Shown: positions 2,574 to 22,872, numbered from the stretch's first letter. The stretch is 64,000 bases of DNA from an uncultured Actinomycetes bacterium (GCA_963779685.1 CAVZZG010000003.1:1025673-1089672), one strand, 5' to 3'. The notes: a model not told the origin generated them from the letters alone. Numbers and translations: made by a program.

Positions 2574-3869
2574 CTACGGAACGTACAGGAAGGAGAAGCG
2601 TGACGACTTGTTCTGCGCCTGATCCACGCACTGCACCTCGACGGTGAAGAACCCGTGTCCGACGGGACGACGCGAGGTCCAGGAACCGCGGAACCGCGTG
2701 CTCGAGAGCCGTCGGAGCGTGATGCTGCCAGACTTGCCGCCGCGGAGTCTGCCGTTCCCATCGCGTATCTCGACGTGCATGAACCCAGCCTCGCTGCACA
2801 GCGCCGTCACGTGCCCGCGAGCGCCGGAGTACGGCACGGCCCGCACCGACCACACGGTCGGCGCCTTCCGGTCGCGGATGTGAAGGGTGTAGCCCGCCGT
2901 ACTGACGTTGCCGGCCCGGTCGGCGGCGATCACTGAGACGGTGCCGTTCCCGGGGACGTTCGGCCAGCCAACGCTGACGCCGGTGAGTTCGCCATTGGCG
3001 TTGGTCGTCTTGCAGAACGTGCCCCGCCCGGGATCCGCGCCACTGCACGCACCTGCGTCGGTCAGCGGCTGACCTGAAGCAGCGGGGGTGAGCCGCTTGA
3101 ACGTCACCGCGACGTCTGCCGGACGCGCTGCGAGCAGGCCGGCGTCCGAGGCCGTCACGGTGAACCGCGTGACATCGCCCAGGCCCGGCAGGAGCGAGTT
3201 GACGCCCACGTTGAGCTTCGGCGCCTGGACATCGGTCTCGCGGATGTTGAGGTAGAACGTGCCGCCGCTCGTGAGTGACCCGACCAGCGCGTAGTAGGTC
3301 ACGCCCGGCAGGGCGATGAACGAGACGTAGGCCGGCGCGGTCGAGGTCGGGCCGAGCCCGCAGGCGACTATGTTGCCCGGCGCCGGATCGCCGGCGGTCC
3401 ACGGTGCGGGCGGCGAGTTGAAGACCTCGATCGCCCCCTGGAACGCGGTCTGGGCGGTATCCAGGCTGACCTCGGTCCGTTCCGGGAACGTGATGGCGGT
3501 CATGGTCGGCACGATCTGGTACCAGAGCGTGCGGGTGACTTGCTGCCCGCTCTGGTAGCTGGCAACGTCGGCGGCGCAGTTGGATGCCGTCGTGTCCGGC
3601 GGCCGGACGAACGGCGGGTCGCCGGTGTCGTCGTAGAGCGTGGCCGGCACCGTGAGCCCGACGATTGACGCCCCCAGGTCGATGTCGTAGGCGTTGACGC
3701 GCAGGCCGTCGACCGCGCGGCTCGTGACCTTGTGGATGCCCGCCGGCGTGTCGTTGGGCTGGCCGGCGAACGCCGGCGCCACGCCGAAAACGAGAACCAG
3801 CGCCGCGAGCAGGCCGATTCTGATGCTACCCGCCGGAACCCCCATCGCGCTAATAGTAGCGTCGGCCAT
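2574..3869 (-). CDS. Secreted beta-rich/Ig-like protein of unknown function
   Basis: 431-aa ORF with a signal-like MGVPAGSIRIGLLAALVLVFGVAPAFA (alternative ATG at 3845, 4 nt after the upstream stop). Normal amino-acid composition. I recognise no catalytic motif. Confidence 0.6.
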   Translation of the reverse strand: MADATISAMGVPAGSIRIGLLAALVLVFGVAPAFAGQPNDTPAGIHKVTSRAVDGLRVNAYDIDLGASIVGLTVPATLYDDTGDPPFVRPPDTTASNCAADVASYQSGQQVTRTLWYQIVPTMTAITFPERTEVSLDTAQTAFQGAIEVFNSPPAPWTAGDPAPGNIVACGLGPTSTAPAYVSFIALPGVTYYALVGSLTSGGTFYLNIRETDVQAPKLNVGVNSLLPGLGDVTRFTVTASDAGLLAARPADVAVTFKRLTPAASGQPLTDAGACSGADPGRGTFCKTTNANGELTGVSVGWPNVPGNGTVSVIAADRAGNVSTAGYTLHIRDRKAPTVWSVRAVPYSGARGHVTALCSEAGFMHVEIRDGNGRLRGGKSGSITLRRLSSTRFRGSWTSRRPVGHGFFTVEVQCVDQAQNKSSRFSFLYVP

Positions 3870-4209
3870 CGGTCCAGACCTTCCATAGGACGAGGCCGAG
3901 GCCGATCGTTACCACCAGGAACAGGAGGCTTTGCAGGCCATTCGCCGTCGGCAGCAGGAGCCCGCCGACCACCAGGACGGCGAGGGCGATCCCGCCGACG
4001 CGGATGATGTTGCGCTGCCGGGACGGCATCCACTCCAGCTCGTGCCGGTGCTCCCTGTACAGCACCCACATCACGTAGAGGATGGCCGCCGTCATCAGGA
4101 TCCGCAGGGCGAAGCCGACGATCGCGCCGGCGACCGCGCCCGTCGCGGTCATCACGAACAGCGCCAGCGCTACGACGATGCAGACGTTGCGGATCGTCTC
4201 CTTGCTCAT
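3850..4209 (-). CDS. Small integral membrane protein (about 4 TM), unknown function
   Basis: ATG at 4209 (MSKETIRNVCIVVALALFVMTATGAVAGAIVGF...). This is the C-terminal 119 aa of track ORF 3850..4788, whose N-terminal part is R/P-rich shadow. Confidence 0.6.
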   Translation of the reverse strand: MSKETIRNVCIVVALALFVMTATGAVAGAIVGFALRILMTAAILYVMWVLYREHRHELEWMPSRQRNIIRVGGIALAVLVVGGLLLPTANGLQSLLFLVVTIGLGLVLWKVWTDGRRYY

Positions 4210-4268: not shown

Positions 4269-4652
4269 TTAGCCCCAGCCCATGCCGGTCATGAAGGCCC
4301 GGATCGAGAACAGGGTCGCCACCAGCGCGACGATCGCGAACACCAACGTGTTGCGGCGCACGTCCTCGGTGCGTGCCGAGTAGCCGAAGAGGACCGCGAT
4401 GGCCGGCGCGAAGCCGTACAGGTAGTGGAGCTGGACGGGCGCCCGGTGCTGGGAGGAGAGCAGCAGCAGGCCGAGCACCGCCTGCCCGACGATGACGGTG
4501 TGGGACAGGGCCAGCACCTGGGCGAAGACCCGGCCGGCCGTGGTGGTGCCGCGGTAGACGAGGAAGGCCCAGACGCACGCGACCAGGTTGAGCCCGACCA
4601 CGAGGCCGCCGAGGAACTGGTGGACGTGGGCCACGCGGGGATTCTGGCGCAT
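4269..4652 (-). CDS. Small integral membrane protein (about 4 TM), unknown function
   Basis: ATG at 4652 (MRQNPRVAHVHQFLGGLVVGLNLVACVWAFLVY...). Hydrophobic helices run throughout. Confidence 0.55.
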   Translation of the reverse strand: MRQNPRVAHVHQFLGGLVVGLNLVACVWAFLVYRGTTTAGRVFAQVLALSHTVIVGQAVLGLLLLSSQHRAPVQLHYLYGFAPAIAVLFGYSARTEDVRRNTLVFAIVALVATLFSIRAFMTGMGWG

Positions 4653-4699
4653 GCAGCAGACGCCCCGCTCGGGCGCCGAACGGCTGCATACTCCGGGGC

Positions 4700-5137
4700 A
4701 TGGCTCCCAACCCCGGCGATACGGCACCCGACTTCGCACTCGAATCCGACCGCGGCGACACGGTGCGCCTCAGCGACCTGCGTGGCACGCGGGTGGTCCT
4801 CTACTTCTACCCCCGTGACGACACGCCCGGCTGCACGCGCCAGGCCTGCGCGCTGCGCGACCACTGGACGGACGTCGAGGCCACGGGCGCGTACGTGTTC
4901 GGCGTGTCGCCGGACGACGTGGCGTCGCACGTGCAGTTCCGCGACAAGTTCTCGCTCCCCTTCGTGCTGCTGGCCGACACCGATCGGGCGGTCGCCGAGG
5001 CGTACGGCGTCATGGACGGCGACCGGCTGATCCGCTCGACGTTCCTGATCGACGAGCAGGGCACCATCGCCAACGCCTGGCGGAAGGTGGACGCCGACGC
5101 GCACCTCGACATCATCATGGACGCCCTGGCGTCGTGA
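4700..5137 (+). CDS. bcp: Thiol peroxidase, Bcp-type peroxiredoxin
   Basis: 145 aa. Contains GDTAPDFAL, VVLYFYPRDDTPGCTRQAC (peroxidatic Cys motif) and RSTFLID. Confidence 0.92.
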   Translation: MAPNPGDTAPDFALESDRGDTVRLSDLRGTRVVLYFYPRDDTPGCTRQACALRDHWTDVEATGAYVFGVSPDDVASHVQFRDKFSLPFVLLADTDRAVAEAYGVMDGDRLIRSTFLIDEQGTIANAWRKVDADAHLDIIMDALAS

Positions 5138-6325: not shown

Positions 6326-7702
6326 GTGCAGCCGATGCGGCACCATGACCGGGTGCCCGACACCTGGACCCCGACGAGCTGGCGCGAACGCCCGGCCCGC
6401 CAGCAGCCGGACTGGCCCGACGAGGCCGCGCTGGAGGCCGCCCTGGCCGAGGTCGCTGGCTTCCCGCCGCTGGTCTTCGCCGGGGAGGCGCGCGCGCTGA
6501 CGGCCGGGCTCGCCCAGGTCGCGTCGGGTCGCGCGTTCCTGTTGCAGGCCGGCGACTGCGCCGAGTCGTTCGACGCGTTCTCGGCCCCCAAGATCCGCGA
6601 GCAGTTGCGGGTGATCCTTCAGATGGCGGTGGTGCTGACCTACTCGAGTGGCGTGCCGACGGTGAAGGTCGGCCGCATCGCGGGTCAGTTCGGCAAGCCG
6701 CGATCCTCGTCCACCGAGCTGATCGGCGGCGTCGAGCTGCCCTCCTTCCGCGGGCACAACGTGAACGACCCGGCACCGACCGCCGAGGCCCGGACACCCG
6801 ACCCGCAGCGGCTCGTGCGCGCCTACCACCAGTCGGCCTCGACCCTCAACCTGCTGCGGGCCTTCACCAAGGGCGGCTTCGCCGACCTCTCGCGCGTGCA
6901 CGCCTGGACGCAGGAGTTCGTCTCCACCAGCCGCGAGGGGCGACGCTACGAGGCGCTGGCGGCCGAGATCGAGCGGGCGCTGCAGTTCATGCGCGCCTGC
7001 GGCATCGACACGCAGGCCACGCCGCAGCTGCACGAGACCGATCTCTACACCAGCCACGAGGCCCTCTTCCTCGGCTACGAGCAGGCCCTGAGCCGCGTCG
7101 ACTCCACCACCGGCGAGTGGTACGACTGCTCGGCGCACATGCTCTGGATCGGCGACCGCACCCGGCAGCTGGACGGCGCCCACGTCGAGTTCCTGCGCGG
7201 GGTCGGCAATCCGATCGGGGTCAAGCTCGGCCCGACGACCACCCCGGACGAGGCGCTGTCGCTCTGCGAGGCGCTCAACCCGGACCGGATCCCGGGACGG
7301 CTGACGCTGATCTCCCGGATGGGCGCCGACCACGTCGAGGGGCTGCTGCGCCCGATCCTGCGTGCCGTCACCGACGCCGGTCACCCGGTGGTGTGGTGCT
7401 GCGACCCCATGCACGGCAACACCTTCACGTCCGGCACCGGACGCAAGACGCGGCACTTCGACGACGCGCTGCAGGAGATCGGCGGGTTCTTCGACGCCCA
7501 TGCAGCGGAGGGCACGTGGCCCGGCGGCGTCCACGTCGAGCTCACCGGCGACGATGTCACGGAGTGCCTCGGCGGGGCCGAGGAGATCCTCGACCACCAG
7601 CTCGACGACCGCTACGAGACCGTCTGCGACCCCCGCCTGAACGGGCGGCAGTCGATCGACCTCGCCTTCCGCCTCGCCGAGCTCGTCCGCAGCGAGCCGT
7701 GA
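6326..7702 (+). CDS. 3-deoxy-7-phosphoheptulonate (DAHP) synthase, class II
   Basis: Contains SWRERPARQQPDWPD, AFLLQAGDCAESF, KVGRIAGQFGKPRS, WIGDRTRQ, VWCCDPMHGNT and GGVHVELTGDDVTEC. The start is ambiguous (GTG 6326 or ATG 6335). Confidence 0.93.
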   Translation: MQPMRHHDRVPDTWTPTSWRERPARQQPDWPDEAALEAALAEVAGFPPLVFAGEARALTAGLAQVASGRAFLLQAGDCAESFDAFSAPKIREQLRVILQMAVVLTYSSGVPTVKVGRIAGQFGKPRSSSTELIGGVELPSFRGHNVNDPAPTAEARTPDPQRLVRAYHQSASTLNLLRAFTKGGFADLSRVHAWTQEFVSTSREGRRYEALAAEIERALQFMRACGIDTQATPQLHETDLYTSHEALFLGYEQALSRVDSTTGEWYDCSAHMLWIGDRTRQLDGAHVEFLRGVGNPIGVKLGPTTTPDEALSLCEALNPDRIPGRLTLISRMGADHVEGLLRPILRAVTDAGHPVVWCCDPMHGNTFTSGTGRKTRHFDDALQEIGGFFDAHAAEGTWPGGVHVELTGDDVTECLGGAEEILDHQLDDRYETVCDPRLNGRQSIDLAFRLAELVRSEP

Positions 7703-8934
7703 GCGCGGCCCTCGACGCCCTCGATCGGCGCACCGACGAGCTGGTGGCGTTCACCGCCGACCTCGTGCGCCGTCCCAGCCCGAACCCGCCGGGCGACACG
7801 CGCGCCGTCGCCGATGCCGTCGCCGCGCGCCTCGCCGAGCACGGCATCGTGGTCGAGGAGATCTCCGACCAGGTGCACACGCCGAACCTCGTCGCCAGCG
7901 TCACGGGCGACCGGCCCGGCCCCCACCTCGTGCTGTGCGGCCACATGGACGTGTACCCGCCCGGCCCGGGACACGCCTGGTCGGGCGATCCGTGGCGCGG
8001 CGAGATCGCCGGCGGACGCCTCCACGGACGTGGCGCGGGCGACATGAAGAGCGGCCTGGCGACCCTCGTCGCGACGCTCCTCGCCCATGCCGAGACCCGG
8101 ACGTTCGGCGGCCGCCTGACGCTGCTGGCGGTCTCCGACGAGATGAGCTTCTCGCCGCACGGCGCACCGCTGGTGCTCGAGCGTCGGCCCGATCTGGTCG
8201 GCGACGCCGTGATCGGTGCCGAGCCGACATCGCCGGACTTCGTGCTCTTCGGGGAGAAGGGCATGGCCTGGATCGAGCTGGAGGCCGAGGGCGGCAGCGG
8301 CGCCGGCGCCTACGCGGTCGGCGTGCCGAACGCCATCGAGCGCCTGGCGGCGGCGCTCGGCGATCTGGCTGCATTGCGCGACTGGCAGATCCCGATGCCG
8401 GACGACGTCGTGCAGGCGCTTCGGTCAGGCGGTGGCACGGACGGCCTGCCGCCCGAGGCGCTCACCTACGCCGACGACCGCGTGCTGCCGCTGGTCACCG
8501 TGAATGCCGGTGTGATCGCCGGGGGCCGCAAGATCAACCTGGTCGCCGACGCCGCCCGCTGCGAGCTCGACCTGCGCCTCCCGCCGGGCGGCGCGCTCGC
8601 CGACCTCCACGACCGCCTGCGCGGCATCCTCATCCGCCATCCCGGCGTCACGTACCGCGTCATCCAGGAGATGGCGCCCAACTACACCGACCCCGCCGAT
8701 CCGCTGGTCGCAGGGCTGGTGACGGCCGGTGCGGCCGTGCGGGGCGTCGCCCCCCGCCCCGAGCTCGGCATCACGGCCTCCGACACCCGGCTCTGGCGGG
8801 CACGGGGCGTGCCGGCGGCCATGGTCGGCCCGCGCATCGCCGGGCAGGGCATGCCCGACGAGTCGATCGCCGTCGCCGACCTCGTGGACTGCGCGCGCAT
8901 CGTCACCCGCGCGACCGCCGACCTTCTCGGCTAG
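7699..8934 (+). CDS. M20 family metallopeptidase (ArgE/DapE/ACY1-like)
   Basis: GTG 7699 overlaps the DAHP synthase stop (GTGA). Contains LVLCGHMDVYPPG, GRGAGDMKSGLA, SDEMS and EPT. Track ORF 7117..8934 is over-extended upstream. Confidence 0.88.
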   Translation: MSAALDALDRRTDELVAFTADLVRRPSPNPPGDTRAVADAVAARLAEHGIVVEEISDQVHTPNLVASVTGDRPGPHLVLCGHMDVYPPGPGHAWSGDPWRGEIAGGRLHGRGAGDMKSGLATLVATLLAHAETRTFGGRLTLLAVSDEMSFSPHGAPLVLERRPDLVGDAVIGAEPTSPDFVLFGEKGMAWIELEAEGGSGAGAYAVGVPNAIERLAAALGDLAALRDWQIPMPDDVVQALRSGGGTDGLPPEALTYADDRVLPLVTVNAGVIAGGRKINLVADAARCELDLRLPPGGALADLHDRLRGILIRHPGVTYRVIQEMAPNYTDPADPLVAGLVTAGAAVRGVAPRPELGITASDTRLWRARGVPAAMVGPRIAGQGMPDESIAVADLVDCARIVTRATADLLG

Positions 8935-8941
8935 AGGACCG

Positions 8942-9208
8942 TCAGAGAACTTCCGCGCCGAGGCGGTCGCGGATCAGCGGCAGGACGTCCTCGGGGTCCG
9001 GGTAGCGCCCGAGCATCTTCTTGGTGAAGACCAGCTCACCGTCGATGTGGACGTCGAAGATGCCGCCGGTGCCCGGAACCACCTCGAGCCGCTCGAGCAC
9101 CGGGCCCCACCCGGCGAGGATGCGCGCGACCAGACCGGCCGCGTTCGGGGCCGCCCCTCAGGGGACGCAGTATTCGATCCTGATGGAGTACGTCGGATTG
9201 AGTACCAC
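8942..9208 (-). CDS. Rdx family (SelW/SelT-like) selenoprotein, 88 aa, with Sec encoded by in-frame TGA at 9158-9160
   Basis: Not in the ORF track. From GTG 9208: MVLNPTYSIRIEYCVP-U-GAAPNAAGLVARILAGWGPVLERLEVVPGTGGIFDVHIDGELVFTKKMLGRYPDPEDVLPLIRDRLGAEVL, with stop TGA at 8942-8944. The TGA sits at the second position of the family CxxC/CxxU motif. G/C third-position bias continues on both sides, and a SECIS-like hairpin lies 14 nt downstream. Confidence 0.8.
9125..9143 (-). promoter_or_regulatory. Putative bacterial SECIS hairpin (Sec recoding signal)
   Basis: Minus-strand RNA is CGCGGCC-GGUCU-GGUCGCG: a 7-bp stem (one G-U pair) and a 5-nt loop, starting 14 nt after the UGA. The apical GGUCUG is identical to the apex of the E. 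coli fdhF SECIS as I recall it. Confidence 0.6.
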
Positions 9209-9229
9209 GGCGCGAAGCGTAGACGCTGC

Positions 9230-9257
9230 GGGCGGAGCCGGTCACCCGGCCCCGCCC
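9230..9257 (-). terminator. GC-rich hairpin downstream of the giant repeat-protein gene (terminator-like, no U tract)
   Basis: GGGCGGAGCCGG-TCAC-CCGGCCCCGCCC has 12-nt arms. The single mismatch is A-C on the plus strand but G-U on the minus-strand RNA. It starts 18 nt after the stop at 9275. Confidence 0.35.
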
Positions 9258-9274
9258 GATGCGCTGACTTCAGA

Positions 9275-12200
9275 TCACGAGGGCTGCGTCTTCGGCGCGG
9301 CGGCCGAGATGGCGTCGGTCGAGCCGGCCGCGTTGGCGGCGGTGACGACGCAGCGCAGGTAGAGGTCGATGTCGCCGGCGACGGCGTGGTACGAAGCTGA
9401 CGTCGCACCGACGATCGGCCCTGGCATGTTCCCCTGCGGCCCTGCTCCCGCGCCGGCGAGGCAACTCGAGAACGCGGTGTTGTTGAGACAGCGATACCAC
9501 TGGTAGGAGTAGGTGGTCGGGGTGTTCGACCAGGTGCCGTTGGTGATGCTGCCCGTGGTGCCCGCCGTGCCGGAGCGCGGCTTCCAGGTGGACGGCGAGA
9601 ACACCGGCAGCGTCAGGTTGACCGGCGGCGTGCCGCCGCCGCCTGCGGTCACCGTCCACGAGGCCGTCTGGCTCGCGGAGCCGCCGGTGTTCGTGACCGT
9701 GACGACGAAGGTGTGCGCGCCGACCGCGACGCCGGAGAGGTTCACCGGCGTGGTGCACGGGGTGTAGGCCACGCCGTCGTAGGTGCAGGTGGTGGACGAG
9801 ATGGTGCCGGTGGTCGTCCACGCGATCGTGGCCGTGGTTGCCGTCGTGGTCGGCGTCGGGGCCTGGCTGAGCGAGATCGTGGGCGGACTCACGGCCGCTG
9901 CCACCGACCAGGTGTAGCTCGCCGTCGCCGAGCCGCCCGAGTTCGCGACCGTGACCGAGAACGTGTGGGAACCGACCGCGAGGCTGGAGTAGCTCTGGCC
10001 GGAGGCGCAGGCCACGCCCGGAGCGGCGTCGAGCGAGCAGGTCGTGCTCGTCGGGGCGCCGCCGCCCGTCGTCCAGGCGAAGGTCGCCGTCGGCGGGGCA
10101 TTGGTGGCGACCGGCGTCGAGGTCAGGGTGACCGTCGGGGCGACCGCGACGACCGTCCAGGCAGCCGTGGCGGTGCCCGAGCCGGTGGCGTTGGTCGCCG
10201 TGATGACGTAGGTGTGGGCTCCCAGTGCGAGCCCGCTGAGGGACGCCGGGGAGGTGCATGCCACCGCGGTGCCGGCGTCGAGCTTGCAGGTGGTCGAGGT
10301 CGGGCTGTTGGTGGCCGTCCAGGCGATGGAGGCCGTGGTCGCGGTCACCGACCCGGTCGGGGCGCTGGTGATCGTGACGACCGGCGCCGGTGCCTGCACC
10401 GTCCACGGGGTCGTCGTGGCCGTGCCCGTGCCGGCGATGTTGGTGGCGGAGACCGTCACCGAGTGCGAGCCGACCGAGAGACCCGACACGCTGTACGGGC
10501 TGGTGCAGGCCGTGGCCGTGCCGCCGTCGAGCGAGCAGGTGACCGTGGTCGGGCTGTTGGTGGTGGTGAAGGCGACGGCGCCCGAGGTCGCGGTGCCCGT
10601 GGCGGGCTGCGACGTGATGGTGACGGTCGGGGTGCCGACGATCGTCCAGGCGGCCGTGGCCGAGCCGGTGCCGGTGGCGTTGGTGGCGGCGACGACCACC
10701 GTGTGGGCGCCGACGGCGAGGGCCGAGTAGGCCTTCGGCGAGGTGCACGCCGTCGCCGCGCCACCGTCGATCGCGCAGGTGGTGGAGGTCGGGCTGTTGG
10801 TGGCAGTCCAGGCGATGGAGGCGCTGGTCGTGGCCACGGAGCCCGACGGCGCCGAGGTGATCGTCACGACCGGGGCCCCGACCGCGGGCGGCTGCACCGT
10901 CCATGCGGTGGTGGTGGCCGAGCCGGTGCCCGCGATGTTGGTCGCGGCGACCGTGACCGAGTGCGAGCCGACGGAGAGCGACGACATACTGTACGGGCTG
11001 GTGCAGGCCGTGGCCGTGCCGCCGTCGAGCGAGCAGGTGACCGTGGTCGGGCTGTTCGTGGCCGTGAAGGCCACGGCGCCGGAGGTCGAGGTTCCGGTCG
11101 ACGGCTGCGAGGTGATGGTGACGACGGGAGCCGCGATGATCGTCCAGGCGGCGGTGGCCGAGCCGGAGCCGCCCGCGTTGGTGGCCGTCACGACCACCGA
11201 GTGGGAGCCCGCGGACAGGCTCGAGTACGCCTGCGGCGAGGTGCATGCCGTCGCGCTGCCGCCATCCAGGGCGCAGGTCGTCGAGGTCGGGCTGTTCGTC
11301 GCCGTCCAGGCGATGGAGGCGGTGGTCGCAGCCACCGTGCCCGTCGGCGCGCTGGTGATGGTGACGACCGGGGGCTGCGGCAGCACCGACCACGCGGTGG
11401 TCGAGGCCGAGCCGGTGCCACCGGAGTTCGACGCCGTCACGGTGACGGAGTGCGAGCCCACCGAGAGCGCCGACATGCTGTACGGGCTGGTGCACGCGGT
11501 GGCGGTGCCACCGTCGAGCGAGCAGGTCACGGTGGTCGGGCTGTTGGTCGCGGAGAACGCGACCGCGCCCGACGTGGACAGGCCGGTGGACGGCTGCGAG
11601 GTGATGGTGACGACCGGTGCCTGCACCGGTGCGACGACCGTCCAGGTGTAGGGCGTGACGGCTGCCAGGTCAGTCGTGTTCGAAACGTAGAGGCCGAACA
11701 CGTGCGGGGCCTGGGCGAGCCCGGAATAGGACTTCGTGTACGTACCGGCGGTGCCGCCGGGGGTCGCCGAGCAGGCCGCGTAGGCCGCGCCGTCGATCGA
11801 GCACATGATGTTCGTGGCCTCACCGACGATCGTGAACCCGAACGAGGCCGAGGTGGCCGTCGTGGTCGCACCCGGCGTCGAGGTCAGCTGGACGGTCACG
11901 GGATCGGTGATGGTCCACGCCAGGTCGGCGGGCGCCGACCAGCCGCGCACGTTCATGACCGCGACCCGGAAGATGTGCGATCCGGGATTCAGCGCGTTGG
12001 CGGTGTACGGCGGCGCGGTGCAGGGAACGTCGGTCGAGTCGAGGTAGCAGACGGTGTCGGTGCCGGGGACGTCGGTCGACCAGTCGAAGATGGCGGTGCG
12101 AGCGGTGGTCGTCGCAGGCGGAGCGGCGATGTAGGTCACGGTCGGCTTGACGGCCGCGACGGCCTTCACCAGCAGCACGATGTGATCGGCGATCCGGTTG

Positions 12201-22599: not shown

Positions 22600-22788
22600 T
22601 CCTGGCAAACGCCGACGGCAGACGGGACACGGCAGCTTCGCCCGCCGCGGCTCCGAACCATGACGGCCGCAGTAGGCGAGTTGGCGGTCGCTCAACGGCC
22701 GCGATGCGCGGGTGGCGTTCGCTCGGAGGCCGCGAAGACGGGCCGCCCACCGCCGCGCGGGCCGTTGCCCGTGAGCGGGTTAGAGAGG

Positions 22789-22872
22789 TGCGGATGAGAG
22801 GACTTGAACCTCCACGCCCTTACGGGCACACGGACCTGAACCGTGCGCGTCTACCAATTCCGCCACATCCGC
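22789..22872 (-). tRNA. tRNA-Leu (anticodon CAG), class II with long variable arm
   Basis: Minus strand: GCGGATGTGGCGGAATTGGTAGACGCGCACGGTTCAGGTCCGTGTGCCCGTAAGGGCGTGGAGGTTCAAGTCCTCTCATCCGCA. Acceptor stem is GCGGATG/CATCCGC. The anticodon stem CACGG/CCGTG carries the loop TTCAGGT. The T-loop is TTCAAGT. CCA is not fully encoded. Confidence 0.93.

Follow-up and report, generated by a model that had tools for sequence, protein, structure and literature searches.

The locus and its gene

The window, that is, the whole stretch of 64,000 nucleotides that was analyzed, carries on its minus strand a short gene of the SelW-like family whose reading frame contains a single in-frame UGA. The coordinates of the gene, of its parts and of the neighboring features are collected in Table 1. 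Translation across the UGA gives MVLNPTYSIRIEYCVP-U-GAAPNAAGLVARILAGWGPVLERLEVVPGTGGIFDVHIDGELVFTKKMLGRYPDPEDVLPLIRDRLGAEVL, with U at the position of the UGA. When Cys is put for U, this product matches the Pfam family Rdx (PF10262) over positions 2-74 of 74, a match that spans the UGA with E = 1.3e-16 and a score of 61 bits against a cut-off of 22.6. The NCBIfam model TIGR02174 (CXXU_selWTH) also recognizes the product (45.2 bits, cut-off 34.2). The score obtained with the Campylobacter equivalog NF041051 (61.9 bits) falls under the cut-off of 88, placing the gene outside that Campylobacter subfamily.

The nearest solved structure is 3DEX, the Cys-type Rdx protein SAV_2001 (E = 1.1e-13), whose CTQC is aligned to CVP-U. 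The CxxU of the window protein follows the first beta-strand, with IEY-C-V-P-U lying against the C-T-Q-C of 3DEX. Taken together, the profile matches and this alignment indicate that the UGA occupies the second position of the CxxC/CxxU motif. The pattern of GC content over the three codon positions agrees with the frame on either side of the UGA. The sequence-only reading had placed the hairpin described below inside a coding sequence, and the 88-codon frame with an Rdx domain that is full-length across the UGA bears this out.

Reassignment of UGA in the genetic code of the host was considered and rejected. TGA serves as a normal stop here: 15 of 29 long open reading frames terminate with it, as does the SelW-like gene itself, so there is no genome-wide reassignment of UGA. 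A search of the window for further selenoprotein genes, in the form of an in-frame TGA flanked by coding-like GC3, returned only ordinary gene junctions. The SelW-like gene is convergent with an M20 peptidase gene, and a 1300-codon open reading frame lies upstream of it on the same strand.

Table 1. Features of the SelW-like gene, the candidate SECIS element and their surroundings in the window
Feature	Position	Strand	Basis or remark
SelW-like (Rdx / SelT-SelW-SelH) gene, 88 sense codons	8942..9208	minus	readthrough of the single UGA; profile matches
Start codon GTG	9208-9206	minus	
CxxU redox motif TGC-GTC-CCC-TGA, predicted Cys-Val-Pro-Sec	9158..9169	minus	aligns with CTQC of SAV_2001
In-frame UGA, putatively read as selenocysteine	9160-9158	minus	TGA in 92/92 loci read
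14-nt spacer from UGA to stem	9157-9144	minus	same length in all 70 distinct aligned sequences; gapless alignment
Candidate SECIS upper stem, 5' arm CGCGGCC	9143-9137	minus	97.1% of cells paired (columns 18-24 with 30-36)
Candidate SECIS apical loop GGUCU	9136-9132	minus	near-invariant columns; Gly GGT 66/66, Ser AGT 12/12
Candidate SECIS upper stem, 3' arm GGUCGCG	9131-9125	minus	pair counts; RNAalifold hairpin
Possible lower helix including the UGA (columns 2-9 with 37-45)	9116-9159	minus	window MFE fold
True stop TGA	8944-8942	minus	
M20 peptidase gene	~7702-8934	plus	
Intergenic hairpin	9223-9264	minus	between the stop TGA of the upstream ORF (9277-9275) and the GTG start
1300-codon ORF	13177-9275	minus	
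ORF	2574-3908	minus	coding-like GC3
ORF	4269-4769	minus	coding-like GC3
tRNA-Leu (CAG)	22787-22872	minus	

The hairpin downstream of the UGA

On the minus strand the region around the UGA reads ...GAA UAC UGC GUC CCC UGA GGG GCG GCC CCG AAC GCG GCC GGU CUG GUC GCG CGC... The sequence-only reading had described a stem of 7 bp with one G-U pair, closed by a 5-nt loop and beginning 14 nt after the UGA, and the sequence is exactly so. The distance of 21 nt from UGA to loop, for which that reading had claimed agreement with bacterial SECIS elements, lies inside the published range of 16-37 nt (PMC13188914). When positions 9160-9100 are folded, the stem is present in both the minimum-free-energy (MFE) and the centroid structures.

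Results from randomization depend on the length of RNA that is considered. The isolated 19-nt hairpin has a folding energy of -11.3 kcal/mol (z = -3.35), and none of 200 shuffles was as good. The 61-nt context (9160-9100) is no stabler than its shuffles (z = +0.74), as 151 of 200 were at least as good. The GC content of the window is 72%, and at this composition folding energy was set aside as uninformative. A generic hairpin of the bacterial SECIS (bSECIS) type follows 114 of 540 UGA triplets on the plus strand of the window and 118 of 565 on the minus strand, or about 21%, and a stem of at least 7 bp follows about 11%. On its own, the hairpin is no more than chance gives in a GC-rich window. 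Statistical significance comes only from comparing the element with its orthologues.

The MFE fold of the window sequence also contains a lower helix that includes the UGA. This helix was rejected as a conserved feature, as only 66.4% of the orthologue cells pair at columns 2-9 with 37-45.

Conservation of the codon and of the helix

A protein search returned 313 homologues, and 22 sequences were read out of the best 120. At the DNA level, 10 loci were taken from species-representative genomes, 80 from metagenomes of soil and sediment, and 1 from a 4.17-Mb contig of a metagenome-assembled genome (MAG). The 10 loci come from MAGs labelled Gaiellales, Thermoleophilia, Actinomycetes, Promineifilaceae (Chloroflexota) and Methylomirabilota. 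All 92 loci read (91 related loci and the window) have TGA at the position of the proposed selenocysteine (Sec). In these loci the TGA is preceded by [IV]-x-[IV]-x-Y-C-x-x, conservation of the protein extends to either side of the codon, and 'IEYCVP*' is conserved among the orthologues.

Three rare contigs carry GGA (Gly), TGT (Cys) or CGA (Arg) at this position, each of which is one base away from TGA, and the hairpin is intact in each (L094 359-385, L095 356-382 and L096 356-382). These contigs may reflect sequencing errors, population variants, or very recent Sec-to-Cys or loss-of-function conversions. Translation with an alternative code was rejected as the source of homologues with Gly, Arg or Cys here, since the DNA truly reads GGA, CGA or TGT in single contigs. 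A form with Trp at the Sec position is also found in the database (P0006). Locus L009, from the Promineifilaceae (Chloroflexota) MAG, has a pair of tRNA-Ala genes (7616-7836) some 80 nt ahead of its SelW-like gene. The hairpin of this locus is GGCCGUC-GGUCU-GGCGGCC, in which the loop is kept and the first stem pair is flipped.

Conservation of the RNA was examined in an alignment of 70 distinct 66-nt segments that begin with the TGA and align without gaps. Columns 18-24 and 30-36 are paired in 97.1% of 490 cells, at the same offset in all sequences. Changes on both sides of a pair occur at 3 of the 7 pairs and account for 22 cells, and two of the three (18-36 and 21-33) join wobble positions, that is, third codon positions. 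Pair 18-36 is found as CG in 65 sequences, GC in 2, and AU, UA and GU in 1 each. Pair 21-33 is found as CG in 56, GC in 5, GU in 2 and UG in 2, and pair 22-32 as GC in 46, GU in 10, AU in 9 and UA in 1. The covariation at pair 22-32 (Ala to Thr together with Ala to Val) could in part be coupling at the protein level. Helix conservation and compensatory change, both of which the sequence-only reading had asked of the orthologues, are thus present.

When the columns were shuffled, 0 of 500 shuffles equalled the alignment in pairing, in covariation score or in the count of pair types; these statistics overstate independence because the orthologues are related to each other. Sliding the 3' arm by 1-3 columns lowers pairing to 27-66% of cells. 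The same hairpin is the only consensus structure that RNAalifold finds in the orthologues. The loop consensus across the family is R-G-K-Y-U, with an invariant second G and a U at the third position in at least 90% of the 70 orthologues.

Comparison with known SECIS elements

The specificity of the hairpin was probed with a sequence pattern and with a covariance model. The strict pattern requires a loop RGTYT, a stem of at least 6 bp, an in-frame TGA 16-30 nt upstream, and a frame that is open on both sides. Across about 516 kb (the window and all loci, both strands) it has 73 matches, all of which are in SelW-like genes. The covariance model was trained on the 27-nt core and gives 38-43 bits for four held-out sites. 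For the window site, itself part of the training set, the score is 39.9 bits. The runner-up in the window reaches 19.8 bits; it was rejected along with the four sites ranked below it, as none of the five has a suitably placed TGA.

The bSECIS consensus model (PMC13188914) calls for a loop of 3-9 nt, an upper stem of 4-16 bp, a UGA-to-loop distance of 16-37 nt, an MFE of -7.5 kcal/mol or lower, and a G at the first or second loop position or at both, as a rule with G or U after it. The window element has the 5-nt loop GGUCU, a 7-bp stem, a distance of 21 nt and an energy of -11.3 kcal/mol, all within these bounds, and scoring against a bSECIS model, which had been proposed as a check, thus places it inside all four constraints of the consensus (PMC13188914). 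No SECIS family was found with Rfam in the whole window at gathering thresholds or in 8900-9300 at E <=10; all that turned up were chance hits on miRNA and sRNA models. According to a preprint, bSECIS elements are poorly represented in Rfam.

The sequence-only reading had likened the apex of the hairpin to that of the fdhF SECIS, and the fdhF sequence it gave proves to be exact. A total of 5413 E. coli records contain the 46-nt TGACACGGCCCATCGGTTGCAGGTCTGCACCAATCGGTCGGTAATG at no less than 99% identity, with the listed matches lying in fdhF. At least 95% identity holds in all 5420 matching records and in 5419 of 5426 E. coli genomes. Consequently, the shared hexamer GGUCUG is real, although the likeness is limited to the loop. 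The E. coli fdhF SECIS (upper stem-loop GGUUGCAGGUCUGCACC) is also intragenic and lies just after the UGA, and its GGUCUG codes for Gly-Leu in the same codon phase. In fdhF, a minimal element of 17 nt begins 11 nt from the UGA, at a spacing that is itself essential, and contains an essential bulged U17, and G23/U24 of the apical loop are the contact for E. coli SelB (PMC8659212).

Compared with these features, the exposed G-U of the apical loop is present in the window element, whereas the dimensions and the bulge are not. The fdhF loop is a 4-nt GGUC closed by A-U, while that of the window element has 5 nt and is closed by C-G. The window element is 19 nt long rather than 17 nt and begins 14 nt rather than 11 nt after the UGA, and a continuous 7-bp helix, both in the window and in the orthologues, takes the place of a helix with a bulged U. 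The 5-nt loop, the missing bulge and the 14-nt spacer together put the conserved G-U one codon later than in fdhF (26-27 versus 23-24). The covariance model of the clade gives no match on the fdhF locus at E <=10. Judged by its sequence, the window element fits the general bSECIS definition and would work like the fdhF SECIS, yet it is not of the fdhF type.

SelW-like CxxU proteins encoded with a bSECIS are a known family of bacterial selenoproteins, and they are the most abundant family of the Sargasso Sea selenoproteome, with very few Cys homologues (PMC1088965, PMC1794560). The window gene shares with these proteins the Rdx/PF10262 and TIGR02174 family, the CxxU near the N-terminus, and an in-frame UGA with a small stem-loop, containing a G in its loop, immediately downstream. 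The window clade differs from the known SelW-like genes in its C-V-P-U motif, its near-invariant C-GGUCU-G apex, its GC-rich 7-bp stem and fixed 14-nt spacing, and in its occurrence in soil and sediment lineages of the Actinomycetota type. It also differs in that, among the matches listed, the public entries are almost all truncated and bear no selenoprotein annotation.

The Cys-type Rdx proteins (SAV_2001 of Streptomyces avermitilis, 3DEX; Atu0228, 2FA8) have the same fold family, length and motif position. These proteins contain CxxC (CTQC) followed by a conserved Trp and have no UGA, while the window clade has CVPU followed by G/S-A-x-P-N-A-A-G-L. Eukaryotic selenoprotein W (2NPB) is a homologous thioredoxin-like CxxU protein of the same Pfam family (E = 0.096). 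In eukaryotes the SECIS lies in the 3' UTR and is a kink-turn with SBP2 as its binding protein, not a SelB-bound hairpin inside a coding region.

Proposed decoding of the UGA and alternative explanations

The hairpin at 9143-9125 is, on the strength of the sequence comparisons, very probably the bacterial SECIS of a SelW-like CxxU selenoprotein gene. As such, it is an ordinary case of a known mechanism, conserved in about 90 related genes. A ribosome reaching the UGA would meet the stem-loop 14 nt downstream, and the G-U exposed in its loop would recruit the SelB-GTP-Sec-tRNA(Sec) complex. Selenocysteine would then be inserted in place of termination and would complete the Cys-Val-Pro-Sec motif of an 88-residue protein with a thioredoxin fold. 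Translation of the same mRNA would terminate at the ordinary UGA at its end, which has no such hairpin. SelB presumably binds the hairpin, and the inserted residue is presumably Sec and not another amino acid.

The machinery for this decoding was sought in the window and its relatives. ARAGORN found no tRNA-Sec in the window or in loci L001-L010. Neither motif searches nor tblastn with the E. coli proteins SelA, SelB and SelD detected selA, selB or selD in the window (64 kb) or the flanks of related loci (452 kb). This negative result weighs against a SECIS; the host is presumably competent for Sec, with selA, selB, selC and selD elsewhere in the source genome. The window comes from a contig of 2.47 Mb, and its DAHP synthase (6326-7702) is 75-79% identical to proteins labelled Acidimicrobiales and Ilumatobacteraceae. 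The use of Sec is documented in Actinobacteria, and in one order of Acidimicrobiia every one of the 84 complete genomes is reported, in a preprint of 2026, to carry selA, selC, selD and a divergent selB. Apart from Sec competence of the host, little would account for a TGA that is retained everywhere alongside a hairpin under selection.

An alternative in which the hairpin stimulates readthrough of the UGA independently of Sec, for example with Trp, Cys or Arg inserted by a near-cognate tRNA, is very improbable. The missing Sec machinery in the window and the 452 kb of flanks would suit this alternative, as would the rare contigs in which GGA, TGT or CGA stands before an intact hairpin. However, those variants are single contigs, each one base off TGA, and the codon is at the position of the catalytic residue in a family that is defined by CxxC/CxxU. 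The G-[G/U] signature of the loop and the spacing of the stem are also those of SelB-dependent elements, and the documented use of Sec in Actinobacteria and in one order of Acidimicrobiia further speaks against readthrough of this kind.

It is very improbable that the hairpin, instead of being a SECIS, is a by-product of coding for Asn-Ala-Ala-Gly-Leu-Ala/Val-Ala (GCN GCN GGN CUN GCN GCN) in a GC-rich genome. Such an origin has some plausibility, as Ala codons are partly self-complementary and generic hairpins are common in the DNA of the window. When codons for the window peptide were resampled, 7/7 pairs formed in 9.8% of trials and at least 6/7 in 43%. The orthologues provide the evidence against it, beginning with their choice of codons, for which the same genes downstream of the element served as the comparison. 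The Gly of the loop is encoded by GGT in every case (66/66), whereas Gly elsewhere is encoded by GGC in 69% and by GGT in 8.2%. Where the loop codes for Ser, the codon is AGT in 12/12, compared with 0.7% elsewhere, so that a rare GGT or AGT stands at the loop position in 78 of 78. The Leu that closes the loop is encoded by CTG in 79 of 81, while elsewhere CTC (56%) exceeds CTG (36%).

Synonymous resampling of each peptide from the family's own codon usage (2000 trials) gave perfect 7-bp stems in 8% of genes, with a maximum of 20% in any trial, against the 83% that is observed. At codons 5-11 after the UGA, synonymous entropy amounts to 0-0.9 bit, and in the rest of the gene to roughly 0.9-1.5 bits at the majority of conserved Gly, Val, Pro and Ala codons; the collapse is confined to nt 16-36 after the UGA. 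Codon choice, resampling and entropy therefore indicate selection on the RNA itself over nt 16-36. The covariation from one wobble position to another likewise runs against a coding by-product, and this explanation is largely refuted.

That the UGA is a true stop, ending a 16-residue peptide ahead of a separately initiated, truncated Rdx protein, or marking a pseudogene or a sequencing error, is extremely improbable: most database homologues are 59-67 aa long and start past the UGA, and a GTG at 9100 in the window could initiate a 52-aa product, but the called starts vary (MPNAAGL..., MARIL..., MLERL...) and arise from non-conserved codons, the truncated product would have neither the redox motif nor part of Rdx although Rdx matches at full length across the UGA, and TGA in 92/92 loci, with 'RIEYCVP' conserved in frame just upstream, rules out a sequencing error or a recent pseudogene.

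Annotation and wider significance

Reading of the UGA as Sec bears on how the family appears in public databases. Among the 22 homologues read from the best 120 of 313, 13 (59-72 aa) start past the UGA at non-conserved start positions, and, beginning after the UGA, they are without the catalytic motif. About 110 of the best 120 homologues resemble these in length (52-72 aa). 'Rdx family protein' and 'SelT/SelW/SelH family protein' are among the names given to the truncated entries (P0008-P0120). The pattern suggests a systematic mis-annotation of a selenoprotein in public entries, and the window gene itself encodes a putative 88-residue selenoprotein of the kind that standard gene callers miss.

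As the family is mostly truncated in databases, the practical value of the element lies in annotation. The fixed offset, invariant loop and wobble covariation form a specific signature that could be used to re-annotate the family in metagenomes, and the model of this signature separates true sites (38-43 bits) from background (<20 bits). The gene also implies that its source organism, an Acidimicrobiia-like actinobacterium by its DAHP synthase, decodes selenocysteine. Current understanding of Sec decoding is unchanged by these results. The element offers a very clean case of synonymous-site selection on an RNA element in a coding region.

A broader proposal can be made only tentatively and is somewhat doubtful as a whole. 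The hairpins may belong to a distinct, rigid class of SECIS (bulge-free 7-bp GC stem, C-GGUCU-G, fixed 14 nt) found across Acidimicrobiia-like, Thermoleophilia/Gaiellales, Chloroflexota and Methylomirabilota lineages, in a subfamily that is essentially Sec-only and is mis-annotated as proteins of 59-67 aa. If this is true, a shared rigid class would point either to a deeply conserved, non-enterobacterial code of SelB recognition or to horizontal spread in which gene and SECIS travelled together.

Other features of the window

Between the 1300-codon open reading frame and the SelW-like gene lies a very stable intergenic hairpin with a 13-bp GC stem, GGGCGGGGCCGGG-UGAC-CCGGCUCCGCCC. Its 61-nt context has a folding energy of -39.1 kcal/mol (z = -4.6). 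The hairpin looks like a terminator but is without a U tract, which is why a simple terminator scan misses it. The two smaller open reading frames on the minus strand listed in Table 1 have no Pfam match at E <=0.001. The 1300-codon open reading frame has an unusual composition (GC1 0.55, GC2 0.67, GC3 0.93). Its sole Pfam match is a weak one to an Ig-like domain of the phage tip attachment protein J, and it may encode a repetitive surface protein. The tRNA-Leu gene is the sole tRNA gene in the window.
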